Part shown: positions 11,715 through 55,988 of the stretch, in pieces
Layout of the letters: each line of letters opens with the position of its first letter
How positions within the stretch are numbered: position 1 is the first letter of the stretch
Assembly (NCBI GenBank): GCA_016200585.1
Contig: JACQEN010000103.1
Coordinates: 1 to 58,188 of the forward strand
Direction of reading: 5' to 3'
Length of the DNA: 58,188 bases
DNA from: Deltaproteobacteria bacterium
Lineage (GTDB): Bacteria > Desulfobacterota > Binatia > HRBIN30
Translations under genes and position numbers: made by a program
The notes under the pieces: model-generated
Seen by the model: the letters and a program-made list of their open reading frames with translations, nothing else
Told to the model about the DNA's origin: nothing
Databases searched by the model: none

Positions 11715-11739
11715 CACCACACCTCACCAGGACAGGAGA

Positions 11740-17500: not shown

Positions 17501-17586
17501 GCGGCGGCAAGCCGAGCGTTGGGCAGAGCCTGAACGCCATCGACTCGAGGGGGGGATGATGAACCAAGCACCCACCTTATGCGCAT
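14545..17586 (-). CDS. class A penicillin-binding protein-like (GT51 transglycosylase + expanded transpeptidase)
   Basis: 1013 aa. GT51 motifs are present: ALLFIENRELL (EDxxF-like) and GGSTLAVQLEKY. Transpeptidase motifs are STAK (SxxK, ~aa 516), STN (SxN, ~aa 622) and KTGS (~aa 937). An N-terminal TM helix is present. Confidence 0.85.
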   Translation of the reverse strand: MRIRWVLGSSSPPRVDGVQALPNARLAAAAQVTAHVLRWFIAASELLLGTVVGAALVYELDTSALQARVFSDYAARVTFRVSPGASHSIAFPHSGPFDHYRGYSALPIFQNLLERQGFRVVAQARASNELRQLLAWNVAPPYDEPPAAGLVIRGPDGATLFNAVHENETFQSFEDIPALIVDALLFIENRELLTPLDPRTNPAIEWDRLAHAGLLFIGTKLGVPVDLQGGSTLAVQLEKYRHSPGGRTSSGFDKLRQLLAASLRSYQDGEDTSRQRRQIIVDYLNTIPLAAAPGYGEVYGLGAGLRAWFGVDLRDIVSALRTEATDPSKVRAFKQVLTLIAAVRAPTDYLSHSPVALEQRVTGYTDLLAQAGKIDSSFARALQQTQIEFLPYVPLTAAQPFIERKGLSAVRTHLLRTLRMNSLYDMDRLDLTVDSTVDMALQQEITQLFLDLADPRCVSADDLKGEHLLRTGDPSKVIYSLVLFERTQAGNLARVHTDNLDRPFDINDGIKMELGSTAKLRTLAHYLEIVAQLHHEWSGRPAADLTEPAKLAHDPITKWAIETIQSQPQIELSSLLAQSLERKYSANPGESFFTGSGVHTFGNFDRNDNGRILTLREALRKSTNLVFVRLMRDLVRFHQARLPYEAGTILDDPDNPVRQTMLAEIADNEAHRFLWHTYRRYADLKPERIADRMLGGRVTSPRHLAILFFAWKIGTSEEELGRWLRLKTVALSPQEVHRLYKAYSNPRLTIADYGYLLGRNSLEVWTTGQLVRQSNLTWDQLYARSTEARRTASAWLFKTRNRHAQDTRLRIRVEQDAFARMTPYWQHLGFPFEHLIPSLATALGNSSDRPIALADLMGIIVNDGMRLPLQRIHRLHFASRTPYETVMVPTHDTGQRVMEPEVAQTLRSAISEVVDAGTARRVKGAFQSHGKTLIVGGKTGSGDNRFETFSRSGGVISSRAVSRTATFVFYIGDRYFGVITAHVPGKDAAQYEFTSALPLSVLKLAAPAINAKM

Positions 17587-40080: not shown

Positions 40081-42756
40081 ATGGCGATTGACTACGACGT
40101 TCCTTCCGACAAACGCCTTCTCTACTGGCTCGGTGACAAGCTGATCGATTACCGGCATCCGGTTTCGATCGTCGTCCTCCTGGTCACCGCGGTGTTCGCG
40201 TATTGGGGCTTTCAGTTGCAACTGGTGACCAGCTTCGGTGATCTGCTGCCGCAAAATCACCCGTACATCAAAATCCACAACCGCTTCTCCGGCACCTTCG
40301 GCGGCGCCAACAACATCATGATCATGTTGGAAGTGAAGGACGGCAACATCTTCAATCCGGAGACGCTCAACAAGATCTGGAAGATGACCGAAGGCCTCGA
40401 CAAGGTTTACGGCGTCAACCACAACCAGATCGACTCCATCGCCCACCGTACCGTACGCTATCTCAAGGTCGCCGCCGGCGGCACGATGCGCGCCACACCG
40501 GTCATGCTCGGCGAGGTCAAATCCCAGGAGGACGCGACCCAGATCCGCCGTGTCGTTCACAACGCCGAGAACATTTATGGTCTGCTCGTTTCGCTCGACG
40601 ACAAAGCGGCTTTGATCCGCGCCAACTTCATCGAGGGCCGGTTGGACTACCGGCGCATCTTCGACGAGGTGAATGCGGCCGTCGTTGCTCCGTATCAGGA
40701 TGCGAATACCGAGGTCTACGTGGCCGGCGAACCCCGGCTGTACGGCTGGGTGTACAACTATGCCGGCGACGTGTTCTTCATCCTGGTCATCACCTACTGC
40801 ATCGAATGGGTGCTGCGTTGGATGTACTTCCACGACTGGCGCGGCGCGTTGCGGCCGACCATCACCGGCTTGATCGCTGCCTTCTGGGGCTTGGGGTTCA
40901 TTCATTTCATCGGTCTCGCCCTCGACCCGTTGATGCTGGTGATGCCGTTCCTGATCACGGCGCGTGCCGTCAGTCACGCCATCCAGATGCACGATCGCTA
41001 TTACGAGGAGTTCGAAAAGAGCGGTTGGCACAAACGGCGCGCCATCGTCGCGTCGTTCGCCGAGCTCTTCGTTCCGACGCTCTCGGGCATTACGACCGAC
41101 GCGTTCGGTGTGCTGGTGATTCTGCTGGTGCCGGTGGTCATGCTGCAGAAGCTGGCGATCACGGCGTCGTGGTGGATTCTGGCCATCACGATCTCCGAGA
41201 TGTTGCTCAATCCGGTCGTCTATTACTATCTCAAAGCGCCGGAGCCCGAGCTCGTCATGCTGCGCGAGCGCGGCGGATTCCGGCTGGCCATCAACCGTTT
41301 CGTCAAAGTGCTGCTGACCCCGGCCGGCAAAGCCATTACCGTCGTCGCCTGGCTCGGGTCCGCGGTCGTGGCGCTCTATTTCCTGCGTGGCCTCACCATC
41401 GGCGACCCGACCTCGGCGTCGCCCCTGTTGTGGGTCGATTCTCCGTACAACGTTTCGCACCAAAAGATTCAGGACAAGTTCGGCGGCGTCGAGCCGCTCA
41501 TCGTCGTCGCCGAAGGTCTCGACAAGGACGCCATGAAGGACCCGCTCACCTTGCGGCGCATGGAAGGGTTCCAGCGGCTGCTGGAACGCGATTCCGGCAT
41601 CGGATACAGCTTTTCGCTTGCCGATATCATTCGCGCCGTCAATTCGGTCTTCCACGAGCTGGAACCGAAGTGGGGGGTGATCCCCAATAACTGGGTCGAC
41701 ATCGGCGGCTTGTTCTTCATCTATTTCTCCGGTTCGCCGCCGACCGAGACGGCGAAGTACGTCGACCCGAGTTACACCACCGCGCACGTGACCTTCTTCT
41801 GCAAGGATCACAAAGGCGACAACATCCGTCGTATCGTGCACCGATGCAAAGACTACATCCTGGGTTCGCAGCTCGAAGACCTGGGTGTGGAAGTCGGTGA
41901 CGACAACGGCGCGGTGGTGGTGAAGAAGATCAGCTCCGACGTCACTTGGGAAAAGGCCGGGCCGTCGTGGATCGTTTCCGAGCACGGCAAGGAAGGGGAG
42001 GGCCCCTTCCAGGTCGGCGATCACATCGTCAAGGTCGGTCGCGCGCCGGTCACCGACATGGCCAGCTTCTATGCGGCGATGACCAAGGAGACGGCGAGCG
42101 CTTCGCTCATCGACTTCGGTATGCAGCGCGGCGGTCAGGTTTCGGAGACCACCGTCGGGGCCCCCTGGAAGGCGGTGTTCAAGCTTGCGGGCGGCCTGAT
42201 CGGAACACTTGCTGCCGCCAACGAGGAGCTCTTGCGCAACGACGCGCTGATGAACTTCCTCGGATTCTTCACCATGTGGATGATCATGCTGTTCACCTAC
42301 CGCTCGTTTGCGGCCGGCTTCTACCTGCTGGCGCCGCTGCTGCTGTCGAACATCATGGTCAACGCCTACATGGCCATCAACAACATCGGCGTGAACATCC
42401 ACACCCTGCCGCTGGTGACCGTCGGCCTCGGTTTCGGTATTGACTACGGCCTGTACATCGTCAGCCGCACGATCGAAGAGATCCGCATCCGCGGCGACCT
42501 GGTCGATTCCGTGCGCGAAGCGCTCGAGACCTCGGGGAAAGCGGTGACCTTCACCGCCGTCACCATGGTCATCAGCACCGTGTTCTGGATGACCTCGAAC
42601 ATTCGCTTCAACGCCGAGATGGGTTTGCTGCTCGCCATCTGGATGGCCGTCAGCTACGTCGGCTCGCAGACCCTGACCCCGGTGCTCATCGTCATGATGA
42701 AGCCACGTTTCATCATGAAGGAAGCGAATCGCGCTCCGACCCTGACGTCTGTATAA
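40081..42756 (+). CDS. RND superfamily exporter (COG1033/MMPL-like) with extra PDZ-like insert
   Basis: 891 aa. It has the same duplicated TM-block architecture as 1412..3778. An additional ~100 aa sits in the second soluble loop (see findings). The SD is GGAGG. Confidence 0.9.
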   Translation: MAIDYDVPSDKRLLYWLGDKLIDYRHPVSIVVLLVTAVFAYWGFQLQLVTSFGDLLPQNHPYIKIHNRFSGTFGGANNIMIMLEVKDGNIFNPETLNKIWKMTEGLDKVYGVNHNQIDSIAHRTVRYLKVAAGGTMRATPVMLGEVKSQEDATQIRRVVHNAENIYGLLVSLDDKAALIRANFIEGRLDYRRIFDEVNAAVVAPYQDANTEVYVAGEPRLYGWVYNYAGDVFFILVITYCIEWVLRWMYFHDWRGALRPTITGLIAAFWGLGFIHFIGLALDPLMLVMPFLITARAVSHAIQMHDRYYEEFEKSGWHKRRAIVASFAELFVPTLSGITTDAFGVLVILLVPVVMLQKLAITASWWILAITISEMLLNPVVYYYLKAPEPELVMLRERGGFRLAINRFVKVLLTPAGKAITVVAWLGSAVVALYFLRGLTIGDPTSASPLLWVDSPYNVSHQKIQDKFGGVEPLIVVAEGLDKDAMKDPLTLRRMEGFQRLLERDSGIGYSFSLADIIRAVNSVFHELEPKWGVIPNNWVDIGGLFFIYFSGSPPTETAKYVDPSYTTAHVTFFCKDHKGDNIRRIVHRCKDYILGSQLEDLGVEVGDDNGAVVVKKISSDVTWEKAGPSWIVSEHGKEGEGPFQVGDHIVKVGRAPVTDMASFYAAMTKETASASLIDFGMQRGGQVSETTVGAPWKAVFKLAGGLIGTLAAANEELLRNDALMNFLGFFTMWMIMLFTYRSFAAGFYLLAPLLLSNIMVNAYMAINNIGVNIHTLPLVTVGLGFGIDYGLYIVSRTIEEIRIRGDLVDSVREALETSGKAVTFTAVTMVISTVFWMTSNIRFNAEMGLLLAIWMAVSYVGSQTLTPVLIVMMKPRFIMKEANRAPTLTSV

Positions 42757-43046: not shown

Positions 43047-43301
43047 ATGCGCTTCCTGCGTATCGCTCTGTTCACGATTCTGGTTCCGCTCCTTTCCACT
43101 CTATCGCAGCAAGTGTCGCGGGCGCGCGGCAACGAAGCGGTCCCCGGAACCGCAGTCGCTCTGTGCGTGGTCGGCGGATTGTTTCTGGTGCGTGCAGCGG
43201 TGACCGAGTGGGGACGGGGTGCGGAGTACGCACTCCAGAAGGACGTGCTCTGGGGCATCGGCGGCGGCGCGCTGATTGCCGCGGCACTGCAGTGGCTTTG
43301 A
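43047..43301 (+). CDS. hypothetical 84-aa membrane protein
   Basis: It has three hydrophobic segments (IALFTILVPLL, AVALCVVGGLFLV, GIGGGALIAAAL). No clear SD is present. Confidence 0.4.
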   Translation: MRFLRIALFTILVPLLSTLSQQVSRARGNEAVPGTAVALCVVGGLFLVRAAVTEWGRGAEYALQKDVLWGIGGGALIAAALQWL

Positions 43302-43371
43302 AACACCTCGACGGTCTTCGGTTTCCTCCTGCCTGTTGACTGTAGGCTGTCGACTGTCGACTGTGCTTGAA

Positions 43372-44358
43372 ATGATCGAGCTCTCCCACGTCACCAAAGA
43401 CTTCGGCTCGTTGCGTGCCGTCGACGACGTGTCGTTCACGGTTCGTGGCGGAGAGATCATCGGCCTGGTCGGTCCTAACGGTTCGGGCAAGACGACTCTG
43501 ATGCGTATCCTCACAGGATTCTTTCCACCGAGCAGCGGACAAGCACGCGTTGCCGGGTTCGATGCCGGCGTCGATGCGTTGGCGCTGCGCCGTTGCATCG
43601 GTTACCTGCCGGAGAATGTGATGCCTTATCCGGAGATGGACGTGCGCCAATTCCTCGCCTTCTGCGCCGGCCTGCGGCACCTGCGCGGCACCCTGGTGCG
43701 CCAACGCGTCGACCATGTTCTGCACAGCTGTGCGTTGACGGAGGTCGCGCATCGACTGGTCGGAAAGCTGTCGAAGGGCTATCGCCAGCGCGTCGGCTTG
43801 GCACAGGCGCTGTTGCACGAGCCGCAGGTGTTGATCCTCGACGAGCCGACGGTGGGGCTCGATCCGCGCCAGGTCTCGGAGATGCGCCGTTTGATCGACG
43901 GCCTGCGCGGGCGCTCGACGGTGCTGCTCAGCACGCACATCTTGTCGGAGGTGAGCTTGTTGTGCGATCGCGTCGTGATCATCAACCGCGGACGCATCAT
44001 CGCCGAGGACCGCGCTGAGGTGCTAGAGCGGCGCGTCGCCGGAGCCGAGCGTACGTTGCTGCGCGTCACCGGGCCGGTGCGAGAGGTGCGCGCGGTTTTG
44101 TCGCAGGTCGAGGGCGTCGAGCGGGTAGAGGTATCCGAATCGAGCCAACCTCCTCTTGCCGCGAAGGACGGGCCGGGGGATCGCTGGCAGGAAGCTTCCT
44201 TTGTTGTCCATCATGCTACGGCCGATTCGGTCGCGGCACGCTTGGCTGCCGCCGTCGTCGCCTCGGGCTGGCGGCTGCACGAGTTGCGTCCCCTGCCGCT
44301 TGGCATGGAAGAGCTCTTCCTGCGCCTCGTCGGCGACGAACCACGGAGCGCTGCATGA
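43372..44358 (+). CDS. ABC transporter ATP-binding protein (GldA-like, ABC-2 subfamily)
   Basis: I take ATG 43372 as the start (ORF track begins at 43276). It has Walker A GPNGSGKTT, the LSKGYRQRV signature, Walker B VLILDEPTVGLD and the H-loop STH. Confidence 0.93.
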   Translation: MIELSHVTKDFGSLRAVDDVSFTVRGGEIIGLVGPNGSGKTTLMRILTGFFPPSSGQARVAGFDAGVDALALRRCIGYLPENVMPYPEMDVRQFLAFCAGLRHLRGTLVRQRVDHVLHSCALTEVAHRLVGKLSKGYRQRVGLAQALLHEPQVLILDEPTVGLDPRQVSEMRRLIDGLRGRSTVLLSTHILSEVSLLCDRVVIINRGRIIAEDRAEVLERRVAGAERTLLRVTGPVREVRAVLSQVEGVERVEVSESSQPPLAAKDGPGDRWQEASFVVHHATADSVAARLAAAVVASGWRLHELRPLPLGMEELFLRLVGDEPRSAA

Positions 44359-45110
44359 GTTTCCTGACCTTGTTGCGCAAGGAGCTGTACGCTTACTTCG
44401 TATCGCCGTTGTTCTACGTCGTCGCCGCGGTGTTTCTCGGCCTGTGCGGATTTTTCTTCTACACGCGGCTGATCTTCTTCGTCGAGTACGGTCTCGGGGA
44501 GAACATTCTCGGCAACTTCTGGTTGGCCTTCATGGCCGGCGCCCCGTACTCGATTTCGATGGTGTTGCTGTTGGTGATGCCGCTGCTGACCATGCGCTCG
44601 TTCGCCGAAGAGAAGAAACTCGGCACCATCGAGCTGCTCCTCACCTATCCGATCCGTGACGGTGAGCTGTTCTGCGCCAAGTTCACTGCCTGTGTGCTGG
44701 TGTTCGTCGTGTTGCTCGCCGGCACCCTGGTCTATCCGCTGTACCTCTACAGCCTGCAGCCCTTGCCGCTCGGTGCGGTCGCCGCCGGGTACCTGGGTCT
44801 GCTCCTGTTGGGTCTCAGCTTCATCGCCTGTGGAGTGCTGATTTCATCGCTGACCGACAATCAGGTCGTCGCGGCGGTTTCGACTTTGGGGCTGCTGCTG
44901 GGCTTCTGGGTTCTGACGTGGAACGAGGCCGCGACCAGCCCGGGGCTGCTGCGAGTGCTCATCCATCTGTCGATGTTCGACCATTTCGAGCCGTTTGCGC
45001 GCGGCACGATCGACGCGGACCACGTCGGCTATTTCGTCTTCTTCGTCCTCTTTTGCAGCTTCTTGACGCTGCGCGTGCTCGAAGCACGTACGTGGCGCGG
45101 CCGTCGCTGA
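44355..45110 (+). CDS. ABC-2 type transporter permease (GldF-like)
   Basis: 251 aa with six hydrophobic helices. An ATGA overlap links it to the ATPase gene. Confidence 0.88.
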   Translation: MSFLTLLRKELYAYFVSPLFYVVAAVFLGLCGFFFYTRLIFFVEYGLGENILGNFWLAFMAGAPYSISMVLLLVMPLLTMRSFAEEKKLGTIELLLTYPIRDGELFCAKFTACVLVFVVLLAGTLVYPLYLYSLQPLPLGAVAAGYLGLLLLGLSFIACGVLISSLTDNQVVAAVSTLGLLLGFWVLTWNEAATSPGLLRVLIHLSMFDHFEPFARGTIDADHVGYFVFFVLFCSFLTLRVLEARTWRGRR

Positions 45111-45234: not shown

Positions 45235-46623
45235 GTGCGACGGATGATCGTGCGACGACCCTGGCAGCATTGGCTTCTGTTGGCCGTCAGCACCGGCGGA
45301 CTGGCTGCGTTCCTGGCCATGGCGCAGGTCGTTCTCGCGTCCTACGGGTGGCGACTCGATCTGACGCCGGAGCGCAGCTACACCCTGTCGCCGCACGCCC
45401 GCCAGGTGCTGGCCGGCCTGTCGCGTGATGTCGTCATCACCGCATTCGTGCGCTCCGGAGACGACCGCAATCACCAGATCGAGGACCTTATGCGGCGCGT
45501 CGCTGCGGTTTCGCCGCATGTGCGCACCAACCTCATCGACATCAACCGCAATCCCGCCGTGGCGCGCCAGTACGGCGTCGGCAGCTACGCTGGCTTCGTC
45601 GTCGAGTGTGGTACGCGGCGTCGCCAGTTCGAGAATCCAAGTGAGCCGTTGCTGGTGGCGGCGATCCTTCAGGTGACTCGCGACTCGCGGCGAGTGGTCT
45701 ACTTTCTCGGCGGCCACGGCGAGCGCGACATCTACAGTACCGACCGGCAACAGGGCTACTCGTTGATCTCTCTGGCGTTGACGCAGGAGCTGTACGACGT
45801 TCGAGTGCTCGATCTGCTGCATCAAGCGGAAGTGCCGCGCGACGCCGACGTCGTCGTCATCGCCGGAGCGCGGCGTGATCCGTTGCCTTTGGAGATCGAA
45901 CAACTGGCTGCCTTTGCGCATCGTGGTGGCGCGTTGTTGGTCCTGCTCGAGCCGCGCGGCGCTACGGCGCTGATCGATTTTCTGGCGCGTTACGGGGTTC
46001 GAACCGACGATACGATGGTCGTCGATTCCGAGAACCGCTTGTTCGCCGGCGACTACGTGACGCTGTCGGTGCCGGTGCTGTCGCCACGACACCCGATCAG
46101 TGCCGCACTGCAGGCGCCGCCGTTGTTTTCCGGGGCGTGCCCCGTCGAGTTCGCGGCTTCGCCGCGCGGCGGAGTGCGCGGCCTCGAAATCTTGAGCACC
46201 GCTGCGAGCAGTTGGCGGACGCGCGACTTCGATGCCTTGCGCAGCGGCGAAGCGGCGTTCGTATCGGGTCGCGATGTGCGTGGCTCGCAGTCCGTCGGGG
46301 TGAGCTTGCTCGTTGGTCCGCCGCACACGGACGGCGACGCGGTTGCCCGCTTCGTCGTGCTCGGCGACTCCGATTTCGCCACCAACTTCTTCGTCGATTC
46401 GCTCGGCAACAAAGATTTGCTGGTCGACTCGGTCAACTGGCTGGCCGGGGAAGACGCGTTGCTCGGTGCACGGGCGCAAGCCCGCATTCCCGGTGTCAAT
46501 CAGTTCTTTCTCACCGACGAGCAGGGGCGGGAGGCATTCCTGTTGGGCACCGTGATCGAGCCTGGAGCGGTGTTGCTGGTCGGTATGGTGGTGGTGATGC
46601 GACGGCGATGGCGCAGCGTATGA
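45235..46623 (+). CDS. GldG-family ABC-transport auxiliary protein
   Basis: 462 aa. It has an N-terminal TM helix (WLLLAVSTGGLAAFLAMAQVVLA), a large soluble domain, and a C-terminal TM anchor (LLGTVIEPGAVLLVGMVVVM). Its order after the ABC-2 pair matches the gldA-gldF-gldG type layout. The start is GTG 45235 or ATG 45244. Confidence 0.8.
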   Translation: MRRMIVRRPWQHWLLLAVSTGGLAAFLAMAQVVLASYGWRLDLTPERSYTLSPHARQVLAGLSRDVVITAFVRSGDDRNHQIEDLMRRVAAVSPHVRTNLIDINRNPAVARQYGVGSYAGFVVECGTRRRQFENPSEPLLVAAILQVTRDSRRVVYFLGGHGERDIYSTDRQQGYSLISLALTQELYDVRVLDLLHQAEVPRDADVVVIAGARRDPLPLEIEQLAAFAHRGGALLVLLEPRGATALIDFLARYGVRTDDTMVVDSENRLFAGDYVTLSVPVLSPRHPISAALQAPPLFSGACPVEFAASPRGGVRGLEILSTAASSWRTRDFDALRSGEAAFVSGRDVRGSQSVGVSLLVGPPHTDGDAVARFVVLGDSDFATNFFVDSLGNKDLLVDSVNWLAGEDALLGARAQARIPGVNQFFLTDEQGREAFLLGTVIEPGAVLLVGMVVVMRRRWRSV

Positions 46624-46648: not shown

Positions 46649-47173
46649 GTGCGCATGACCTGGAAGCGCGCCGCGCTCTACTGGCTTGGCTTCCTTGCCC
46701 TGGCCGCGTACTACCGCGTCGCCATCGACAGCGATCGGCCGCAACCGTTGGCAAGTCGCCGCCCGTTCCTCGAGATCGCTACCGACCAGATCACGGCCCT
46801 GGATGTCGACCGTCGCGGGCAGCGCTTGCATGCCGAACGCGTCGATGGCAGCTGGCGAGCCACAACGCCGGCTGGGAGTGCGGTGCCGTCGGATCTGATT
46901 GGCGCGCTGGTCGATTCGCTGACCTCGATACCGGATGTCGAGGTGGTCGCCGAGACGGTGGCGGCTACCGATGACTTCGGCTTGCAGCCACCGGCGGCGA
47001 CGATCACCCTCGCACGGGCGCAAGGAGCCCCGATCGTGATCGACTTCGGCCAGCTCAATCCGACGAGCACCGCGGTCTACGCTCGACGCAGCGATTCGCC
47101 ACGCGTCTATCTCCTCGGCCGCAACCTCGACTACTATCTCGACCTGCTGCTGTCGGGCGTCGAAGCCAGGTGA
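46649..47173 (+). CDS. DUF4340-like membrane-anchored protein
   Basis: 174 aa. An N-terminal TM helix (AALYWLGFLALAAYY) is followed by a beta-rich domain. It occupies the usual position after GldG-family genes. The start is GTG 46649 or ATG 46655. Confidence 0.7.
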   Translation: MRMTWKRAALYWLGFLALAAYYRVAIDSDRPQPLASRRPFLEIATDQITALDVDRRGQRLHAERVDGSWRATTPAGSAVPSDLIGALVDSLTSIPDVEVVAETVAATDDFGLQPPAATITLARAQGAPIVIDFGQLNPTSTAVYARRSDSPRVYLLGRNLDYYLDLLLSGVEAR

Positions 47174-47230: not shown

Positions 47231-47779
47231 ATGCGATCGGCACTGGCGGGAGTTTTGGGAGCCTTGAGCTTGTTGGCGAGCCGTCCAGCACAGGCTCAAG
47301 ACATGAAGCAGGCTGCGCCTCAGGGGTACGGCAAGGCGCACTTCTCGATGAGTGTCGCGCAAGTGCGCAAGGCCTACCCGGAGTTGCGGGAGGCGCCCAA
47401 GGTCGCCGGCTATCTCAGTCATCCCAACCTACAGCGCTTCGTTCTCTGGCATCAGAAGATGGAGGGCTTGCCGCACCCGGTGGACGTCGAGCTCCGCTTC
47501 TGGCGCGACAGCTTGTGGACGATCTTGTTCTATTGCGGCGACAACTCGTTCGACGCCGTGAAGGTGCAACTGAGTAAGCAGTTCGGCTTGCCGGCGAGCG
47601 GCGGAACCGATCCGACCTGGTTGTGGCCGACGCGTACGTTGATGACCGCGTCGAAGCAAGGGTGGTACAGCATCGCCGATCGCCAGATCGGCAAAGAGGC
47701 GCAAACCGAGCTGGCGAAGCAAGCCGGGCAGCCGCTGCCGAAGACACAGAATCCGCCGCCCGAGGCGGCGGAGCATTGA
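47231..47779 (+). CDS. hypothetical secreted protein
   Basis: 182 aa. The signal peptide is MRSALAGVLGALSLLASRPAQAQD. No known motif was recognised. Confidence 0.6.
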   Translation: MRSALAGVLGALSLLASRPAQAQDMKQAAPQGYGKAHFSMSVAQVRKAYPELREAPKVAGYLSHPNLQRFVLWHQKMEGLPHPVDVELRFWRDSLWTILFYCGDNSFDAVKVQLSKQFGLPASGGTDPTWLWPTRTLMTASKQGWYSIADRQIGKEAQTELAKQAGQPLPKTQNPPPEAAEH

Positions 47780-47981: not shown

Positions 47982-50900
47982 ATGCTGCAACGGCGACTAG
48001 CGACGACAATCAAGCTGACCTTGCCCGCACTGTGCCTGGGCCTCTTGGTCGGATGCGGAGGCGACTCGAGCGTTGGCGTTACCGACCAGGGGCACCACGA
48101 ACCGGGACCACAGGTTTCGGGTACGGTCAAGGCACCGAACGGCAACTTGGCGGCAGCAGCTTCGTTGATGGAACGGTTCGCCAGCTTGGCAGTGAACAAA
48201 GCTCTGGCGCTCGTAGGCAACTTCATACCGGTTGGGCGCAACGTTACGGTTCAGCTCCTTCTTCTCAATGCCGACGGTCAGCCAGCCCAATTGCTTGCCA
48301 AAGCCATCACCAACGATCAGGGAGAGTACCAACTTCATCTGCCGGAGAAGACGACCGAGGATACCTGCCGTTTCGTCGTCAGTGCCGGGAGCATACGGGC
48401 TTTCGTGACCAGCAACGCCAAGCCCGTCGACATCGATCCGATCACCGAAGCAACCGTTCGATTGGTCCTCGAGCGCTCTGCCGGCGGCCACCTCTGCCTC
48501 TTCAGTGTTCAGGACATCAAGGACATCGACGCCGCCATGCGCGCCATTTCCGGCAGCGTTCTCGGCACCAGTGCCTCGTCGGCTGCCGACTACACGACCG
48601 AGCTGGCGCGGCGCGACCACATGGTGCAGTCGCTGCTGGCGGCGCCGTTTGCAACCTTCACCCCGGCCCCGACCGACACCGTACCACCCGTAACCGCGAC
48701 ACCGACGATTACCGTGCCGGAAAGCTCCGCGACCCCGACGCGCACGTCGACCAAAACATTTACGCCGGCGCCGTCGAACACTCCCACCAACACGCGCGGC
48801 TCGTCGCCGACGTTTACCAACACCAAAACCTTCACACCGACCTTTACCCCGACGCTGACGCCTACGCCGGTCCCGCCAACCGGCACGCCGACCAATACGC
48901 TCACCTCGACGCCGACCTTTACGCTGACCTCGACGCCGACTTTCACCCTGAGCTCGACACCGACGTCGACCAACACGTCGACGCCGACTTTCACTCTCAG
49001 TCCGACCTTGACGCCGACGAATACGCTGGTGCCGTCGCCGACCAACACCCCAACGTTGTCGCCGACCGTCGCCGTAACCCCGCCGCATGTCAGCGTCGGA
49101 TCGGGCAGCGGAGCGCCGGGTGGAAACGTTGCGATTGCGATCTCTCTCGCCTCCAATGGCAACGCCCTGGTTACGTTGGCGCCGTTGTTGGTGGGATTCG
49201 ATCCGAGCCTGCTGACGCCCGGAGCCTGTAACCGCGCGTCCGGGGTGAGCACCGGCAAGAGCGCCAACGCCATTCTGCGTGACGACCATACCTTGAGTAT
49301 CGGCCTGGCCGGCGATTTGACGGTCCTGCCGGACGGCGAGATTCTCAACTGTTCGTTCGCTATCAAGGCGAACGCGTCGTCAGGTTCGACGCCGCTGACG
49401 TTTGTATCCGCCGGCCTCTCAGACGCGCAGTCGCGTGACTACGCGGCGACGGGCACGAGTGGGTCGATCACCGTCGTTGCCCTGACCGCGACGCCAGTTC
49501 CAACCCCGACAATCGCCGCCCCCGTCGCCATGGTGAATCTGAACAGCGTCAGCGGTGCTGCCGGCACAACGGTGACTGTTGCCGGAAGCCTGGTGACCGG
49601 CGGAGCTCAGATCTCTGCTACGTCGAACGACATTCAGTACGATTCGACGCAAATCAACGTGGTGCTGAAGAGCGGTAACAAGCCGGATTGCACCATCGAC
49701 GCGAGCATCAATCCTGACAGCGCCGTGAGCAAGTCGTTGGTGGCGAGCCTACCCACTGTGAGCGGGTTGCCGGCCGGCTTCAAGACGCTACGCATCGGCA
49801 TCTTCGGCAGCGACAACGCCAATCCTATTCCCGATGGCCCGCTGTTTACTTGCAAGTTCGCCATCGCTGCCGGTGCGACGGGCTCCCTCACCTTGAAGAA
49901 CATTCCGGGAGCCTCTGATCCGGCAGCTATGCCGGTGCCGGTGAGTGGCAGCGACGGTGTCGTCACCGTCGGCAGTGTTGCCCCGACCAACACGTCTGCC
50001 CCCCAGGCCACATCGACTCCGACGACACCTCCGGCGCCTACCAACACGCCCCCGGTGCCGCCGACGAATACGGCACCGCCGCAGCCGACCAACACTCAGC
50101 CCTCCACCGGTGGTGCCGCGGTCAACCTCGGTAACGCCAGCGGTGCGGCGGGTGCCACGGTCACGATCGCCGGCAGTCTGGTGACCGCCGGGCTGCAGAT
50201 CTCGGCGACATCGAATGACATCCGTTACGACTCGACGCAAATCAACGTGGTGCTGAAGAGCGGTAACAAGCCGGATTGCACCATCGATGCGAGCATCAAT
50301 CCTGACAGCGCCGTGAGCAAGTCGTTGGTGGCGAGCCTACCCACGGTGAGCGGGTTGCCGGCCGGCTTCAAGACGCTACGCGTCGGCATCTTCGGCAGCG
50401 ACAACGCCAATGCCATTCCGGACGGGCCGTTGTTCACGTGCAAGTTTGCCATCGCTGCCGGCGCCAGTGGAAGTATCACGTTGACGAACATTCCGGGTGC
50501 GTCCGACCCCGCGGCGCAGCCGGTTGCGGTCGGAGGCACGGATGGAATCGTCACTGTTGGTGGCGCGGCTCCGACCAATACCCCGGTTGTAGCGGCAACA
50601 TCGACTCCGACAGTGCCGCCGGCGACCAATACGGTGCCACCGGCTACAAGCACCCCGGTGCCGCCGACGAGCACGATGGTGCCACCGACGAACACCATGG
50701 CCCCCGTGGCGACGGCGACGCCGGTTCCACCGACAAACACGCCGGTGCCGGCACCAACCGATACGCCGAGCGGCGGCGGCGGACCGGCCGTCAACCTCGG
50801 CAGTGTCAGTGGTGCCGCCAGCAGCGTCGTCGTTCTCCCCGCAAGCCTGGCGACCGGCGGTGTCGAGATCTCCGCAACGTCGAACGACATTCAGTACGAC

Positions 50901-51233
50901 ACCAACAAGATCAACGTCGTATTGAAACCCAACAGCAAGCCCGATTGCACCATCGATGCGAGCATCAATGCCGATAGTGCGGTGAGCAAATCCCTGGTGG
51001 CGAGCTTGCCGACGGTGGGCGGCTTGCCGGCGGGCTTCAAGACGTTGCGCGTCGGCATTTTCGGTAGCGACAACGCTAACGACATTCCCGACGGACCGCT
51101 CTACACGTGCAAGTTCACGATCGCGGCCGGTGCCAGCGGGACGATTACATTGACGAACATTCCGGGTGCTTCCGACCCTGCCGCCCAGCCAGTGGTGGTG
51201 AGCGGGAGCGACGGCAAGGTGACGGTACAGTGA
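47982..51233 (+). CDS. scaffoldin-like lipoprotein: CarboxypepD_reg-like domain, long Pro/Thr linker, four cohesin-like modules
   Basis: ATG 47982 sits behind a GAGGAG SD (ORF track begins at 47934). The lipobox is LGLLVGC. The PT linker spans ~48660..49095. The four modules are ~49096..49477, 49533.., 50121.. and 50790... Each is ~145 aa with the pattern G..V.V.(G/I)SL......IS.....I.YD...I.V......DC.ID......DG.L(F/Y)TCKF.IA..A.G...L.N....D....V.V.G.DG.VTV, which I read as cohesin-like. Confidence 0.8.
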   Translation: MLQRRLATTIKLTLPALCLGLLVGCGGDSSVGVTDQGHHEPGPQVSGTVKAPNGNLAAAASLMERFASLAVNKALALVGNFIPVGRNVTVQLLLLNADGQPAQLLAKAITNDQGEYQLHLPEKTTEDTCRFVVSAGSIRAFVTSNAKPVDIDPITEATVRLVLERSAGGHLCLFSVQDIKDIDAAMRAISGSVLGTSASSAADYTTELARRDHMVQSLLAAPFATFTPAPTDTVPPVTATPTITVPESSATPTRTSTKTFTPAPSNTPTNTRGSSPTFTNTKTFTPTFTPTLTPTPVPPTGTPTNTLTSTPTFTLTSTPTFTLSSTPTSTNTSTPTFTLSPTLTPTNTLVPSPTNTPTLSPTVAVTPPHVSVGSGSGAPGGNVAIAISLASNGNALVTLAPLLVGFDPSLLTPGACNRASGVSTGKSANAILRDDHTLSIGLAGDLTVLPDGEILNCSFAIKANASSGSTPLTFVSAGLSDAQSRDYAATGTSGSITVVALTATPVPTPTIAAPVAMVNLNSVSGAAGTTVTVAGSLVTGGAQISATSNDIQYDSTQINVVLKSGNKPDCTIDASINPDSAVSKSLVASLPTVSGLPAGFKTLRIGIFGSDNANPIPDGPLFTCKFAIAAGATGSLTLKNIPGASDPAAMPVPVSGSDGVVTVGSVAPTNTSAPQATSTPTTPPAPTNTPPVPPTNTAPPQPTNTQPSTGGAAVNLGNASGAAGATVTIAGSLVTAGLQISATSNDIRYDSTQINVVLKSGNKPDCTIDASINPDSAVSKSLVASLPTVSGLPAGFKTLRVGIFGSDNANAIPDGPLFTCKFAIAAGASGSITLTNIPGASDPAAQPVAVGGTDGIVTVGGAAPTNTPVVAATSTPTVPPATNTVPPATSTPVPPTSTMVPPTNTMAPVATATPVPPTNTPVPAPTDTPSGGGGPAVNLGSVSGAASSVVVLPASLATGGVEISATSNDIQYDTNKINVVLKPNSKPDCTIDASINADSAVSKSLVASLPTVGGLPAGFKTLRVGIFGSDNANDIPDGPLYTCKFTIAAGASGTITLTNIPGASDPAAQPVVVSGSDGKVTVQ
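48660..49095 (+). repeat. coding low-complexity Pro/Thr linker (TPT/FTxT repeats)
   Basis: The translation reads ...TPAPTDTVPPVTATPTITVP...TFTPTFTPTLTPTPVPPTGTPTNTLTSTPTFTLTSTPTFTLSSTPTSTNTSTPTFTLSPTLTPTNTLVPSPTNTPTLSPT. The ACC/ACG-CCG periodicity at DNA level is imperfect. Confidence 0.85.
49533..51230 (+). repeat. three tandem cohesin-like coding repeats (units begin 49533, 50121, 50790; periods 588 and 669 nt)
   Basis: Direct comparison shows 49644..49823 and 50232..50411 differ at only 3 of 180 nt. The flanks and the third unit are clearly more diverged. Confidence 0.9.
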
Positions 51234-53929
51234 TGGCGGCGAACCGCCACCCATACGAGAAGATGAGTGCGACAGTCATGGGGACATTGAGTAACGAGCG
51301 AGTTGGTAAGACTGATTCCACGCGCCAGGGCTTGCCCATCTATCAGCGACCCGCTTGGCGCTGGGCGGCGGTGGCAATCGTTGCGACTTGGATCCTCGGG
51401 GCTGGGCATGTGCTCGCCGGCACCAAGGTCGGCGATTGCCAGGCACCCGTCGATACCGTCGGGATCAGCGAAGTTCAGGCTTGCGTCAACATCTTTTCCG
51501 GAACGCAGGCGGTGTCGACCTGTTCGCAGTGCGACGCCAACGGTGACGGCACCGTCTCGATCAACGAAGTTCAGGGGTCGGTGAACTGCTTTCTCGACGC
51601 CGGCTGCCCGATGATCACCGCGCTATCGCCGACGCCGACCCATACGACCCCCGTCAACACACCGACGTTTACGGTGCCGCCGACGACACCGCCGACGGCG
51701 ACGCCGACCAAAACTCTTCCGCCGATCGATACGGCGACGTTCACGGCGACGGCTACGGCAACCAACACGCCGGTGACGCCGTCGGCAACGCCAACGACGC
51801 CCCCAGCGGGCGGCAGCTGCGGCGCGGACAAGATGGGTAAGTGCTGCAACATGGTGGTCGATACGGGCGAGGAGTGCGACGACGGCGGTACTTGCGTCGG
51901 CGGCGCCAACGGCGGCAAGGACTGCACCAAAGCGGAGGATTGTCCGGACGGCTACTGCCAGGCCTTTGGCGGTGACGGCTGTGCGGCCAACTGTACCAAT
52001 GAGCGGTCGGTGCGCTTCGCGTTTACCGGAGCCCGCTGCTACGGCGCCACCAGCGACACGTGCGGCGGCATACAGACCTGTGTCGGTGGAGCGTACGTCG
52101 GTAAGCCGTGCTCGACCAATTCGGACTGTGGCCCGGCGGCCAACCGCGGCGTGTGCACCAGCGAATGCGTCAAGACGGCAGGCGACGGCAGCCAGTGCTT
52201 CGGCGTCGGCGAATGCGCCACCGGCGATGCCGACAAGATCGGCAAGAGCTGCCCGTCGAGGATTGCCGGAAACTACCCGCCGTTAGCGCAACCTCTTTGC
52301 CAGGGTGGTACGCGCGTTGGATATCCATGCGTTGCGGTTGGCGCCGGTACGCCGACGCCGGCTCCGGGTTGTCCGGGTGGATCCTGCGTCAATCCGTGCG
52401 GCACCAACGGCACCTGCCAGCACCGCAGCGGTTCCGTCATCCAAACCGTCGGCGTGATTCCGTCCTTGAGCATCGGACCGTTCACCGGCGGTGAGGATCT
52501 GATCATGGGTAAGGCCGGTGCGGACGGTCTGATTCCTGTAGCCGTTCCGGCAACCAGCGTAAGCTTTGCCCCGGTCAAGGTTCAGGGGTTGGCTTGTGCG
52601 TGTCCGGCGGGCTCTGCCGATGCACAGGTGCACGGTCCGGGAAATTCCGGATCGGGATACATTGCCTGTGGCGCCGGCGGTCTGGTCGGCGTCGACGTCG
52701 ATGTGTCGCGCGACCACAACACAACGACGGGTGGCGCGGCCAACGGCCTTGGATCGTGCAAAGGTGGTACGCGTGATGGGCTGGCGTGTGGTGCTGCTCT
52801 GGATTGTCCGGGCACCGGGGCCACCTGCAGCGGACTAGGTAGCTGCGTCGGCGGTACCAACGATGGCAAAGAATGTCTGCTGCCAACGGATTGCCCGAGC
52901 GGCACTTGCCAGCATCACGGCGGTGGCGCCTGCGTCGCGGGAACCAACAAAGGCAAGGTCTGCCACGTTGATGCCGACTGCGGCACAAATGGAACCTGCG
53001 TCAGTCCGGACGACAGCAGCTGCAATGCGCAGGAGCCACCGCCGCCGACCGGCAGCGGTTCCAAAGCCTGCTTGGAGAGCAAGGAAAAGTGTGAAAGCGG
53101 TCCGATCGTCGGAACCCCCTGCACGGCCAACGCACAATGCAATAGCGGTGGCAGCACCGGTGCGACGTGCGGCAACGATTGCAACAGCGGTGGCAACCAT
53201 CCCGGAACGTGCAATGGCCCGATCCGGCTGAGCATCTCCGGGACGCGTGGCACGGGGTCGGCAATCATCGTCACCAACACGGCGATTGGCGTCATTACGG
53301 AGGCCAACGACTGTAGTCGCAGCTCCGTATGTACGCCCGTGACCTTCGGCTTGCCCACAACCACACCGCCGACCGCTTGCTCGGTGGATGCCGAGTGCGG
53401 CGCCGGTAAAGCGTGCTCGACGGCGTATTGCGCCGGCACCTGCACCGGCGGCGCCAACGACGGCAAGCCGTGCATCCGGACGTCCGAATGTCCAAGTGGC
53501 ACGTGCAACCAGGGCGGTACGTTCGGACAAGCCTGCACCGGTTCGACGGCAGGCGAATGCCCGAGCGGCGGTGTGTGCGTTCCGGTGTCGCGCGGCAAAG
53601 GCTTCGATGGCTTGCCGTGTACGGATGACGATCCCGATTCGTCCAAGGGTGTGCCGCAAAACGCCCCGACGACGACCGGCATCGCCAGCACCAACATCAT
53701 CGATGCAGCGGCCGGCACCACCGGCACGCTTGGCCATTTGGTCGGCCTTGGCACATGCAATGGCAACGTCAACTGCCTGACATCGAGAAAGGGCAAGGAG
53801 TTCGATTGCACTGCCCTGATGGCTGCCAATCCAAGCGTCACCGGCGCCACACTGGTGAGCGCCTTCAATCAGCTCGATCCGGCGCAGCTCGGGGACGACG
53901 CGATTACCATCAATCAGACGGCCAAGTAG
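51233..53929 (+). CDS. secreted protein with N-terminal dockerin-like module, PT linker and >=8 cysteine-rich repeats
   Basis: ATG 51233 overlaps the scaffoldin stop (TGATG). A signal/anchor segment is present (WRWAAVAIVATWILGAGHVLAG). The dockerin-like segment spans 51431..51620. The PT linker reads PTPTHTTPVNTPTFTVPPTTPPTATPTKT... It carries GEECDDG plus repeated C.GG...G..C....DC..G.C units. Confidence 0.8.
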   Translation: MAANRHPYEKMSATVMGTLSNERVGKTDSTRQGLPIYQRPAWRWAAVAIVATWILGAGHVLAGTKVGDCQAPVDTVGISEVQACVNIFSGTQAVSTCSQCDANGDGTVSINEVQGSVNCFLDAGCPMITALSPTPTHTTPVNTPTFTVPPTTPPTATPTKTLPPIDTATFTATATATNTPVTPSATPTTPPAGGSCGADKMGKCCNMVVDTGEECDDGGTCVGGANGGKDCTKAEDCPDGYCQAFGGDGCAANCTNERSVRFAFTGARCYGATSDTCGGIQTCVGGAYVGKPCSTNSDCGPAANRGVCTSECVKTAGDGSQCFGVGECATGDADKIGKSCPSRIAGNYPPLAQPLCQGGTRVGYPCVAVGAGTPTPAPGCPGGSCVNPCGTNGTCQHRSGSVIQTVGVIPSLSIGPFTGGEDLIMGKAGADGLIPVAVPATSVSFAPVKVQGLACACPAGSADAQVHGPGNSGSGYIACGAGGLVGVDVDVSRDHNTTTGGAANGLGSCKGGTRDGLACGAALDCPGTGATCSGLGSCVGGTNDGKECLLPTDCPSGTCQHHGGGACVAGTNKGKVCHVDADCGTNGTCVSPDDSSCNAQEPPPPTGSGSKACLESKEKCESGPIVGTPCTANAQCNSGGSTGATCGNDCNSGGNHPGTCNGPIRLSISGTRGTGSAIIVTNTAIGVITEANDCSRSSVCTPVTFGLPTTTPPTACSVDAECGAGKACSTAYCAGTCTGGANDGKPCIRTSECPSGTCNQGGTFGQACTGSTAGECPSGGVCVPVSRGKGFDGLPCTDDDPDSSKGVPQNAPTTTGIASTNIIDAAAGTTGTLGHLVGLGTCNGNVNCLTSRKGKEFDCTALMAANPSVTGATLVSAFNQLDPAQLGDDAITINQTAK
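51431..51620 (+). other. dockerin-like duplicated segment (coding sub-feature)
   Basis: The sequence is GDCQAPVDTVGISEVQACVNIFSGTQAVSTCSQCDANGDGTVSINEVQGSVNCFLDAGCP. The second half has the EF-hand-like DxNxDGxVxxxE loop followed by a helix (VNCFL). The first half keeps the helix (ISEVQACVNIF) but has lost the Ca-ligand residues. Confidence 0.6.
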
Positions 53930-54029: not shown

Positions 54030-54233
54030 TCGACCAGTTCAAACAAGTTCAGGGAAACACCGTAAGGAGTGGCGTATCGTGAAGCGGGAGACCGTTGGCG
54101 ACGAATCGTCAGTACGACTTCTGCCTGGTCGGGATGGGAGGTCGCCTCCGAGACGGTGCATTGATTCAGGGTGAATCGGGTCGAGTTGGCCCGCGAAAAC
54201 AGCAACCAACATTTTGGAGGGAGGAGTAAGAGT

Positions 54234-55988
54234 ATGATCAGCAGAATGAGTAAGGTCGTGGCGGCGGCCGCTTTGGCGGCGCTGTTGTGGCCGACAGCGC
54301 AGGCGAACGCCGTCTGTAGCACGGGCCTTGCGGACAGCGCGACGCCGGCTTGTAAAAATGCGGCGGCATGTCAGACGGGTATCCACAAAGCGGTTTTGAA
54401 GTACTACTCGGACACCCAAAACAAGCTGGCCAATCTACCCTTGGCCGCAAGCTTCGGCGGCAAGACCGTCAAGCCGGTGTACAAGTGCATCGGCGGCCCG
54501 AACAATGGCAAGCCCTGCGTTCACAACAACGGCCAATGCAAGTCGGTGAAGAACAACAAGAAGGGTTGCAATAGCTACCTCGATTGCGATTCAGCGGACA
54601 TGACTTCCTGCGACAAGAGCAAGCAGTGCAACCCGATGTCCGCCAACGACACCAACGAGTGTCAGATCGACACGTCGAAGTCGGCGTACGCGAAAGACGC
54701 GGTGGGAATTCGCGCCAATCTGGTGAAGGCCGTCTTTGCTGCTTGCCAAGCTACAGGCAAGCAGGTTCCGCCGAGTGACCTCGGTCTGGATCAGATTGCA
54801 AATTGTCCCGGCGTTGCGGCGGCGGCCACTGACCCCGATGCGTACAACGCCCTGGTCGATTGCATCACGCGTCGCGCCGAAGGCGATCTCGCTTCCGGCA
54901 AGCTCGTCGACACGGCCCTGTTCGTGTACAACAAGGTGACCGGCACCAATGCGATCGCCCCGCAGGCGAAACCCGGTACGGTTGGAACGACCCAGCCACG
55001 CGGCATTCTGCAGATTGCCGGCTCGCAGTCGCTGCAGGTCGGAACGCAAGCTTCAGGATCGCCGGTTTCCGATGGCGGCGGTTTGACGGAAATCTCCGGG
55101 GCGCACTGCGTCGGCGGCGGTTTCCGCTGCACCAAAGACGCCGACTGCGGCAAGAACTCTGCGGGCCTGGCTGACACGTGTGCGAACAACAGCAACACCG
55201 ATCCGAACTGTGCCAGCGGAATGCCGTGCCGCACTCTGACCGGACCGGGCGCGGTGCACGACGCATCGACCGACGGCAACATTCTCACCGTGTCGGCGCA
55301 ATGTTCGGGAACGATCTCGACCTGTCTGGTTACGCTGACCCAGGATGCCGGCAACGGCACGCCTGCTTCGGGTCATGCGAATTTCGCGGCCGGAGAGGTT
55401 TCGACCAAAGCTCCGATTCACACGAAGGTCTACGTTACCGACATCTTCACGCCGTGCGCTTCCGCGCAGCCCTGTCCGTTCTGTGTCGCGGGCATGTCCG
55501 GCAACACCTGTGACAGCGGCCACACTGTGGGCGGCAGCTGCTCCACCGCAGCCAACGTGCCGACGCAAGAATGCCTCCCGGGCGCCGCTGGGCCGAACCC
55601 ACCCACGGCGACCATCCCGAATCCATTCCTGCTCAGCACCGAGCCGAAGAGCCTGACGGCCAATGGGTCGAATCAGTTCTGCGGCTTCTGTAACAACGAC
55701 CCGACCCAGGGCTGCGCGTTCAGCTACCCGGGTGGCGCCAATCAAGAATGCGTTGATAAGGGCGTCGGCGGCACCTGCAACTTCGGCAGCTCGGGACAGG
55801 GCTTCCAAGGTGATCCGAACGTCGCGTCGATCACCGCCGATGGCGTGCGCAGCACCTACGCGCCGATCTCCACCGGAATCTTCTGCACCGGTAGCGCCGA
55901 TGGTGGTGGTACGGTTGACACCGCGGCCGGCTTGCCCGGTCCGGTGCGCGTCACCATCCCGTACATCCAGGCTTACCTGTTCGACTAG
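54234..55988 (+). CDS. secreted cysteine-rich protein
   Basis: ATG 54234 sits behind a GGAGGGAGGAG SD (ORF track begins at 54171). The signal peptide is MISRMSKVVAAAALAALLWPTAQANA. It has about 40 Cys and contains CIGGPNNGKPC and CVGGGFRCTKDADC, which match the repeat core of the upstream protein. Confidence 0.8.
   Translation: MISRMSKVVAAAALAALLWPTAQANAVCSTGLADSATPACKNAAACQTGIHKAVLKYYSDTQNKLANLPLAASFGGKTVKPVYKCIGGPNNGKPCVHNNGQCKSVKNNKKGCNSYLDCDSADMTSCDKSKQCNPMSANDTNECQIDTSKSAYAKDAVGIRANLVKAVFAACQATGKQVPPSDLGLDQIANCPGVAAAATDPDAYNALVDCITRRAEGDLASGKLVDTALFVYNKVTGTNAIAPQAKPGTVGTTQPRGILQIAGSQSLQVGTQASGSPVSDGGGLTEISGAHCVGGGFRCTKDADCGKNSAGLADTCANNSNTDPNCASGMPCRTLTGPGAVHDASTDGNILTVSAQCSGTISTCLVTLTQDAGNGTPASGHANFAAGEVSTKAPIHTKVYVTDIFTPCASAQPCPFCVAGMSGNTCDSGHTVGGSCSTAANVPTQECLPGAAGPNPPTATIPNPFLLSTEPKSLTANGSNQFCGFCNNDPTQGCAFSYPGGANQECVDKGVGGTCNFGSSGQGFQGDPNVASITADGVRSTYAPISTGIFCTGSADGGGTVDTAAGLPGPVRVTIPYIQAYLFD

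Follow-up and report, generated by a model that had tools for sequence, protein, structure and literature searches.

Here we describe two neighbouring genes that probably encode a cognate cohesin-dockerin pair, found in a stretch of 58,188 nucleotides (nt) from an uncultured soil or sediment bacterium of Candidatus Binatia, presumably diderm; the whole of this stretch is called the window. Gene 1 (47982..51233) encodes a predicted lipoprotein scaffoldin with four cohesin modules, and gene 2 (51233..53929) encodes a secreted cysteine (Cys)-rich protein with a dockerin-like module in its N-terminal part. We hold it likely that the two form a dedicated non-cellulosomal pair of Candidatus Binatia working by the mechanism proposed below, and the connectors of cellulosomes appear to be used here for a job unrelated to cellulose. 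The observation in an earlier note on this DNA was confirmed, and its interpretation is supported except for the claims on surface display, translational coupling and novelty. All features of the window are on the + strand unless otherwise given.

The cohesin scaffold and its probable dockerin-bearing partner

Gene 1 starts 6 nt downstream of the Shine-Dalgarno sequence GAGGAG, and its product (1083 amino acids (aa); also P0111, N-A-B-B-B) is arranged as an N-domain, a Pro/Thr (PT) linker, one type-A cohesin (CohA) and three type-B cohesins (CohB). Against Pfam Cohesin (PF00963) it was matched in four stretches with E=9.7e-20 and 71.6 bits (cut-off 24.1), the best stretch being module 1 (aa 370-498, profile positions 3-139 of 139). 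The type-B profile of modules 2-4 aligned full-length (positions 3-146) with the solved cellulosomal cohesins 6kgc/6kg8, of the nine-stranded beta-sandwich fold, at E=1.2e-6. The prediction that the modules are cohesins, already made in the earlier note, is firmly supported by these profile matches. Four modules are present as had been claimed, but they are not equivalent. Module 1 (aa 367-500; 49080..49481) is of type A, with a score of 211 for the cohA hidden Markov model (HMM), while modules 2 (aa 516-664; 49527..49973), 3 (aa 712-860; 50115..50561) and 4 (aa 935-1083; 50784..51230) are of type B, with cohB HMM scores of 228, 231 and 227, respectively. With module 2 as the reference copy, the DNA identity was 87% for module 3 and 74% for module 4, and the three are, as judged from their DNA, recent duplicates. 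The cohesin modules carry a conserved Cys pair.

The signal peptide and lipobox of gene 1 (47982..48056) were read from the sequence. The N-terminus is MLQRRLATTIKLTLPALCLGLLVG/CGGD, where the slash marks the cleavage site, and the lipobox LLVG/C at residues 21-25 agrees with the bacterial lipoprotein pattern [LVI][ASTVI][GAS]C, predicting Cys25 (codon 48054-48056) as the lipidated residue with Gly at position +2. This lipobox had been pointed out before and is confirmed; the motif x-x-[AG]-C-G-G-[DN] is kept in the scaffold orthologs with their N-terminus on the contig. The anchor-proximal N-domain (aa 26-224, ~200 aa; 48057..48653) was without a family match in the Pfam scan, and the scaffolds in an alignment of 8 (A4) were 40-60% identical to the window copy. 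Then follows the Pro/Thr-rich linker of 142 aa (aa 225-366; 48654..49079, read from the sequence), in agreement with the ~145 aa estimated earlier. The four modules are joined by shorter PT linkers, giving about 400 residues of PT linker in total.

Gene 1 ends in a TGA (51231-51233) whose last base is also the first of an ATG (51233-51235), from which gene 2 encodes 898 aa, the dockerin-like module and then the cargo. The TGATG overlap seen in the earlier note does exist, but translational coupling is unproven, because the start is ambiguous and 58-79 nt lie between the scaffold gene and the dockerin gene in orthologous loci. The database gene call starts at ATG 51263 (P0001, 888 aa). From an alternative start at TTG 51332, the signal peptide would have a conventional length of 30 aa and the intergenic gap would be similar to those of the orthologs. 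The true start may be 51233, 51263 or later.

After a hydrophobic signal segment, gene 2 encodes the 64-aa module TKVGDCQAPVDTVGISEVQACVNIFSGTQAVSTCSQCDANGDGTVSINEVQGSVNCFLDAGCPM (aa 64-127; 51422..51613), which is backed by alignment A1, AlphaFold2 (AF2) and Foldseek. It was scored 99 by the docB HMM and 0 by the docA HMM, and is assigned to type B. The module has two loop-helix halves spaced 33 residues apart, with six Cys bracketing both. The second loop DANGDGTVSINE (51533..51568), identified by motif scan and weak EF-hand Pfam matches, is a canonical 12-residue Ca-binding loop and the sole EF-type loop across all six frames of the window. The first loop DCQAPVDTVGISE (51434..51472) is degenerate when aligned to the family consensus DCNxDGxVxINE, with a one-residue insertion and without the position-3 and position-5 ligands. 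Alignment A1 thus bears out the earlier description of a duplicated, Cys-bracketed module with an intact second loop and a first loop without Ca ligands. The first loop is similarly eroded in the orthologs P0006 and P0007, and both loops are intact in P0009 and most others. The consensus of the 22 members of A1 is C-x-GDC-N-x-DG-x-V-T-[IV]-D-E-[LI]-x3-VN-I-A-L-G, then C, for the first half and D-x-NGDG-x-[IV]-T-[IV]-D-E-[IV]-x2-AVN-x-AL-x-GC for the second; 11 of the 22 match Dockerin_1 (best 9e-9) and 19 match EF-hand_1.

The AF2 model of the module (predicted local distance difference test (pLDDT) 90.6) contains exactly two helices, H15-26 and H47-57, with none before either loop. This predicted topology is that of dockerins, namely tandem ~22-residue loop-helix segments (F-hand, no entering helix), and for this module the structure prediction proposed as a check in the earlier note came out in favour of its reading. 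When the model was searched with Foldseek against 350,542 Protein Data Bank (PDB) chains, the 15 best matches were all cellulosomal dockerins, including 4fl4, 8x39, 2ccl, 4dh2, 3ul4, 2vn6, 2mte, 4uyq and 5k39, with template modelling (TM) scores of 0.46-0.67, root mean square deviations (rmsd) of 2.5-3.9 Å over nearly the whole module and probabilities up to 0.89. EF-hand proteins ranked lower (TM 0.3-0.4, rmsd about 11 Å).

The module is followed by a Pro/Thr linker of ~65 aa (51614..51808, read from the sequence) and by the cargo, a Cys-rich domain of 706 aa with ~8% Cys (51809..53926), characterised by alignments A2 and A3 and by DNA repeats. The repeat unit C-x-GG-x3-G-x2-C-x4-DC-x2-G-x-C occurs at least four times, about eight by eye, and about 60 Cys are invariant in A2 and A3. 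Conserved cores outside the repeats include HGPGNSGSG[FY]I-x-CG, DHNTT and KGFDGLPCT-x-DDP. AF2 with an 11-sequence alignment gave the cargo a pLDDT of 46 and a predicted TM score of 0.25, and the PDB profile search found no relative (best Dickkopf at E=0.31). Gene 2 was scored 15.4 bits for Myxo_Cys_RPT (TIGR04201), below the cut-off of 25, and Dickkopf_N was likewise sub-threshold. PF13948 (DUF4215) was not found in the window protein and was found in the homologs P0010, P0013 and P0019. The homologs of gene 2 are nearly all from metagenome-assembled genomes (MAGs) of Candidatus Binatia. In one of them, P0003 on a 236-kb JGI contig, an N-terminal domain with CNVCH (CxxCH, haem-binding-like) replaces the dockerin.

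Adjacency and type covariation across loci

Loci were sampled from species-representative genomes (78) and metagenomes (51), and all six-frame open reading frames (ORFs) were scanned with the HMMs built here. The scaffold set consisted of 16 separate, non-duplicate loci (10 from genomes, 6 from metagenomes). In all 16, the gene after the multi-cohesin scaffold starts with a dockerin-like module, with a small one-cohesin lipoprotein gene lying between the two in some loci. The partner proteins are all Cys-rich (4.7-9.4% Cys), non-enzyme and mutually related to varying degrees. Three contigs reached through orthologs (L001-L003) share with the window the gene order ABC ATPase, ABC-2 permease, GldG-like ABC_transp_aux, DUF4340, ~180-aa secreted protein, multi-cohesin lipoprotein, dockerin/Cys-rich protein and ~600-aa Cys-rich protein. 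Chance adjacency of scaffold and dockerin genes was considered and rejected on the 16 of 16 loci together with the covariation of types described here.

Among the cohesins there are two clearly distinct types, A including module 1 of the window and B including modules 2-4, and the downstream dockerins also split into two types, docA and docB. The docB pattern is GDC...V-x-INEVQ-x-C-VNIF ... C-x2-C-D-x-NG-x-G-x-V-x-INEVQGA-x-NCFL. The docA pattern is C-x-GDCNG-x-G-x-VSAGELT-x2-IAIIL-x-C ... GC-x-AVPGGC-x2-AD-x-NG-x-G-x-I-x-AGELT-x-II-x2-IL-x-FP-x-GCPP, and the linker between its repeats is longer and rich in Cys. A docA gene follows each of the five A-only scaffolds (HMM 100-125; docB 0), and a docB gene follows each of the 11 B-containing scaffolds (HMM 61-107; docA 0), so that the types covary in 16/16 loci with no exception. 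At loop positions 10-11, the classical specificity positions of cellulosomal type I dockerins, docB has I-N and docA has A-G.

Orthologous partners were also found with different connectors. The window cargo P0001 (docB) and the L001 cargo P0002 (docA) are 50% identical orthologs, and their scaffolds carry B and A, respectively. Each dockerin type matches its own scaffold, so that the connector pair has been swapped as a unit. Over all loci, strictly classified docB genes lie directly 3' of a cohesin gene in 9 of 9 cases, and modules of the generic type in 7 of 109. The window and L010 have mixed scaffolds, one A followed by three or four B, each adjoined by a docB gene; a docA-bearing partner is thus predicted elsewhere in the genome. 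Orphan docA genes are present in related MAGs. In the few loci sampled, the related MAGs have 3-8 dockerin-like ORFs each, so that further dockerin-like proteins, for which the earlier note had asked, do exist, and in MAGs with a B-type scaffold the sole docB gene in the sampled loci is the one beside the scaffold.

Lipoproteins of ~160-220 aa with a single type-A cohesin are encoded between the A-type scaffold and the docA gene in L001 (9496..9975), L011, L031, L081, L020 and L043, and may act as minimal anchors. Some contigs bearing the system are labelled Candidatus Margulisiibacteriota and Myxococcales: L011 and L022 (DATKMS01), and L016, L027, L040 and L050 (JBBILD01). This could reflect mis-binning, mislabelling or lateral spread of the system. 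In L003, a DsbA/thioredoxin-like gene (6161..7078) lies between the small secreted protein gene and the cohesin scaffold gene, in keeping with the Cys-rich partners requiring disulfide formation. The conserved Cys pairs in cohesins and dockerin, taken with this gene, are a signature of an oxidising compartment.

Proposed assembly and rival explanations

In the proposed mechanism, the product of gene 1 would be exported by Sec, lipidated at Cys25 and tethered to the membrane by the lipid, with the N-domain beside the membrane. One type-A and three type-B cohesins are strung on the 142-aa Pro/Thr stalk and the shorter PT linkers. The product of gene 2 would also be exported by Sec, and its roughly 75 cysteines would be oxidised to disulfides. 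The docB module would then dock on the type-B cohesins, as suggested by fold, adjacency and type covariation, giving up to three cargo copies per scaffold, and the single CohA would be reserved for the second, docA-bearing protein. Only the second Ca2+ site of the dockerin appears intact; the first half is probably stabilised by disulfides, as the six Cys bracketing the halves may compensate for the lost Ca site. Most likely, the assembly would be a multivalent structure at the cell surface, serving as adhesive or coat.

Several results weigh against a cognate pair displayed on the surface. For the dockerin, the PF00404 check proposed in the earlier note failed on the window copy, giving no match even at E<=10; the Pfam EF-hand matches were sub-threshold only, and the PDB sequence-profile search with the dockerin alignment returned EF-hand proteins, not dockerins. 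This last search is uninformative on fold, so structure prediction and Foldseek were used. The Foldseek E-values were 0.3-2 for the 64-residue model, as expected at this length, so that the fold argument rests on ranking and on superposition quality and TM. Canonical dockerins need both Ca sites, and the first loop of the window module is degenerate. For the covariation, some of the 16 loci had gone into the training of the docA and docB HMMs, with only the six metagenome docB cases held out (L082, L085-L089), and the 16 loci belong to one class-level lineage and are not phylogenetically independent. For the surface, the default orientation of diderm lipoproteins is towards the periplasm, the window showed neither a surface-export signal nor a secretion system, and no route by which the gene 1 or gene 2 protein might cross the outer membrane was identified. 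Despite the failed PF00404 test, the predicted dockerin-like identity of the module is supported, because half of its relatives match Dockerin_1, dockerins fill the top fold matches, and adjacency and type covariation are conserved.

The sequence-level results just named can be explained in another way, in which the gene 2 module is a small Ca2+-binding, EF-hand-like stabilising domain common on secreted Binatia proteins, the cohesins are Ig-like spacers or adhesin domains with another binding target, and the two genes share an operon without docking. EF-hand pair domains (calmodulin-like; Entamoeba CaBP) have the 12-residue DxNxDGxxxxxE loop in common with the module and were the best sequence-level PDB and Pfam matches, favoured over dockerins for the window copy. 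In addition, 81 of the 109 generic modules of the family are without a cohesin gene nearby, and the role of most non-cellulosomal cohesins is not known (PMC5244752, PMC10066038). However, the model lacks the entering helices of EF-hands, and EF-hand proteins fit it poorly by the TM and rmsd values given above while dockerins fit over the full length. Together with the two-helix topology and the extracytoplasmic, disulfide-bonded context, these values led us to reject an EF-hand pair or signalling domain. Shared operon membership without docking would also leave unexplained why dockerin and cohesin subtypes switch together in 16/16 loci and why docB is restricted to cohesin-B neighbours. We therefore regard it as improbable. 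It is far more improbable still that the pair is an assembly or annotation artefact, with repeats collapsed or expanded, or with spurious ORFs in high-GC sequence. High GC does yield many overlapping spurious ORFs, and the 74-87% DNA identity of cohesin modules 2-4 means that their copy number could in principle be mis-assembled; but full-length orthologs of both genes, with 38-60% identity and the same architecture, come from independent assemblies, and the HMM support for both genes is strong.

Even with cohesin-dockerin docking accepted, the complex could be periplasmic, with its anchor in the inner membrane or the inner leaflet of the outer membrane and without surface display, and might then serve as an envelope scaffold connected with the GldG-type ABC system encoded next to it. 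The plain lipobox with Gly at +2, the Sec-type signals as the only ones on both partners and the absence of a surface-export signal or secretion system in the window are consistent with this location. So are the ABC ATPase, ABC-2 permease, GldG-like and DUF4340 genes directly 5' of the scaffold in 8 loci (window + 7), but this set is not at that position in L088 and L089. Surface exposure is favoured because the ~400 PT-linker residues would make the scaffold far longer than the periplasm is wide; with the four 4-nm modules, the extended chain would far exceed it. PT linkers are also typical of extracellular proteins. A periplasmic complex is, in our judgement, a serious rival but rather unlikely, and surface assembly of the docked pair is preferred. 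The surface display claimed in the earlier note went beyond the data, as nothing places the complex outside the outer membrane.

Known systems, distribution and gene context

The cellulosomal anchoring scaffoldins compared were those of type I pairs, Clostridium thermocellum CipA/OlpB/SdbA and C. acetobutylicum CipA. As in these, several cohesins are carried on Pro/Thr linkers in a cell-anchored scaffold, the partner has a ~65-aa duplicated loop-helix dockerin, distinct specificity types coexist, scaffold and partner genes are adjacent, and fold and profile match solved dockerins and cohesins. Unlike these, the window system is without glycoside hydrolase, carbohydrate-binding module (CBM), X-module, S-layer homology (SLH) or sortase signal; it is anchored N-terminally by lipid, in a host that is presumably diderm, and there is a conserved Cys pair in its cohesins. 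Six Cys bracket the dockerin, which is located N-terminally and has lost one Ca site, and the cargo is a non-enzymatic-looking Cys-rich repeat protein. In the loci sampled, there is one cognate partner gene per B-type scaffold instead of dozens of competing enzymes. By Pfam, no glycoside hydrolase, carbohydrate esterase, polysaccharide lyase, CBM, SLH or sortase domain was detected in genes 1-3 and 28 other ORFs of the window, and the scaffold has no LPXTG but the N-terminal lipobox instead. A cellulosome was therefore rejected, there being no carbohydrate-active enzyme, CBM or SLH and no dockerin-borne enzyme, and the non-cellulosomal character proposed earlier holds for these 31 larger ORFs.

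Non-cellulosomal cohesins and dockerins are a kind already known, and known to be widespread, so that the earlier statement that no characterised system was known overstated the novelty; such modules, also from diderms, are in the literature as uncharacterised putative adhesins. A catalogue of cohesin- and dockerin-like modules outside cellulosomes, of unknown function, spans all three domains of life (Peer et al. 2009, FEMS Microbiol Lett 291:1, as far as it is reported in PMC5244752 and PMC10066038). In anaerobic methanotrophic (ANME) archaea and the sulfate-reducing partners with which they live in syntrophy, cohesin/dockerin proteins are expressed that are regarded as adhesins (PMC10553843), and Saccharophagus degradans has candidate cohesin/dockerin modules alongside lipobox-anchored enzymes (PMC2386152). 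The window system resembles these in occurring in cellulosome-free organisms including diderms, with genes often adjacent and adhesion or cell-cell contact proposed. Those reports are domain counts or annotations, unlike the present analysis. In the literature searched, there was no description of a lipoprotein multi-cohesin scaffold family, a conserved operon, covarying specificity types, Cys-bracketed dockerins or a Cys-rich cargo family, and cohesin, dockerin and Binatia were nowhere found together. New here are the lipoprotein multi-cohesin scaffold family, the conserved operon, the two covarying specificity types with dedicated Cys-rich cargo, and N-terminal dockerins with bracketing Cys, one Ca site being lost in some of them. 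The cargo shares C-x-GG...C...DC...C units with the Myxococcus-type Cys-rich repeats (TIGR04201 Myxo_Cys_RPT; DUF4215 PF13948), and several cargo homologs pass PF13948; unlike members of these, the window protein is below both thresholds, and that family is itself without known function or structure.

If true, a diderm, non-cellulolytic lineage would have a well-defined natural system of cohesin and dockerin in which one scaffold and one partner form a gene pair. Such a clear pair would make the role of non-cellulosomal cohesins and dockerins directly testable with two recombinant modules. It would offer new, apparently orthogonal, disulfide-stabilised pairs (types A and B) for protein-assembly engineering, and a first functional handle on the Cys-rich repeat protein family, on Binatia envelope biology and possibly on GldG/DUF4340 ABC systems.

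Independent evidence that anchor, connector and cargo belong together comes from natural fusions. In P0015 the scaffold lipoprotein N-domain is fused directly to cargo, without cohesin or dockerin; in P0021 and P0030 a type-B cohesin is fused to cargo or cargo-type repeats; and P0055 has a dockerin-like module, a cohesin and a second dockerin-like module in a single chain. Of 1.84 billion representative clusters, the type-B cohesin profile of the window matched 1,252 at E<=1e-3, with 476 reaching 1e-10 and 86 reaching 1e-30. Among the best 150 of the 1,252 clusters, in 27 the lipoprotein N-domain precedes 1-6 cohesins, 57 contain at least three cohesins, and in 40 a single chain bears both cohesins and a dockerin-like module (B-B-B-d, d-B). 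Such single chains include P0116, P0128, P0129, P0144, P0198 and P0201, and are found in loci L095, L106, L119, L125 and L130. Chains of this kind follow the grammar of adaptor scaffoldins, a hint that uncultured bacteria may build hierarchical assemblies. As a tentative extension, which we consider somewhat unlikely, Binatia and related uncultured diderms would have a complete system of hierarchical, cellulosome-like assembly that is unrelated to polysaccharide breakdown. It may consist of lipoprotein anchoring scaffoldins, adaptors bearing both cohesins and a dockerin, no fewer than two or three orthogonal specificities with disulfide-stabilised dockerins, and a dedicated cysteine-knot cargo family, and the genetically coupled GldG-type ABC transporter may be its export or assembly machine. 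If true, it would be a new kind of modular structure, a surface coat or an adhesion organelle.

The genes 5' of the scaffold in the window were assigned by Pfam and synteny. They encode an ABC transporter ATPase (43276..44358, probable start about 43372; ABC_tran E=5e-31), an ABC-2 family permease (44355..45110; ABC2_membrane_2 and ABC2_membrane_3), a GldG-like auxiliary component, ABC_transp_aux (45235..46623; PF09822 E=2.8e-19, DUF7088, DUF4350), and a DUF4340 protein (46649..47173; PF14238 E=1.6e-14). The GldG-type ABC system mentioned in the earlier note is thereby verified upstream of gene 1. A functional link of this set to the cohesin system, with a role in export or assembly, is possible and speculative. 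A 182-aa secreted protein (47231..47779), which adjoins the scaffold gene on its 5' side, is without a Pfam match and has orthologs with 34-65% identity at the same position in L001, L002, L003, L009 and L031. On the 3' side of gene 2, gene 3 (54231..55988, alternative start 54171) encodes a secreted Cys-rich protein of 585 aa without a dockerin. Orthologs of gene 3 with 29-46% identity are at the same position in L001-L003, Pfam and NCBIfam scans gave no match, and its product may be a further component of the scaffold complex.

Other genes of the window are of housekeeping type, encoding MMPL transporters, acyl-CoA dehydrogenase, enoyl-CoA hydratase, WS/DGAT, class A penicillin-binding proteins (PBPs), citrate synthase, a sigma-54 two-component system and PtsP-like proteins. 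The WS/DGAT wax-ester synthase (10209..11720, - strand) and the MMPL transporters (1412..3778 and 40081..42756, both + strand) lie on one contig with the beta-oxidation genes, which is compatible with a lipid- or alkane-oriented metabolism. A normal PBP1 is encoded at 30385..32796 (- strand), and the ORF at 14545..17586 (- strand) encodes an unusually long class-A PBP-like protein of 1013 aa with weak transglycosylase (E 2.6e-15) and transpeptidase (3.6e-9) matches.

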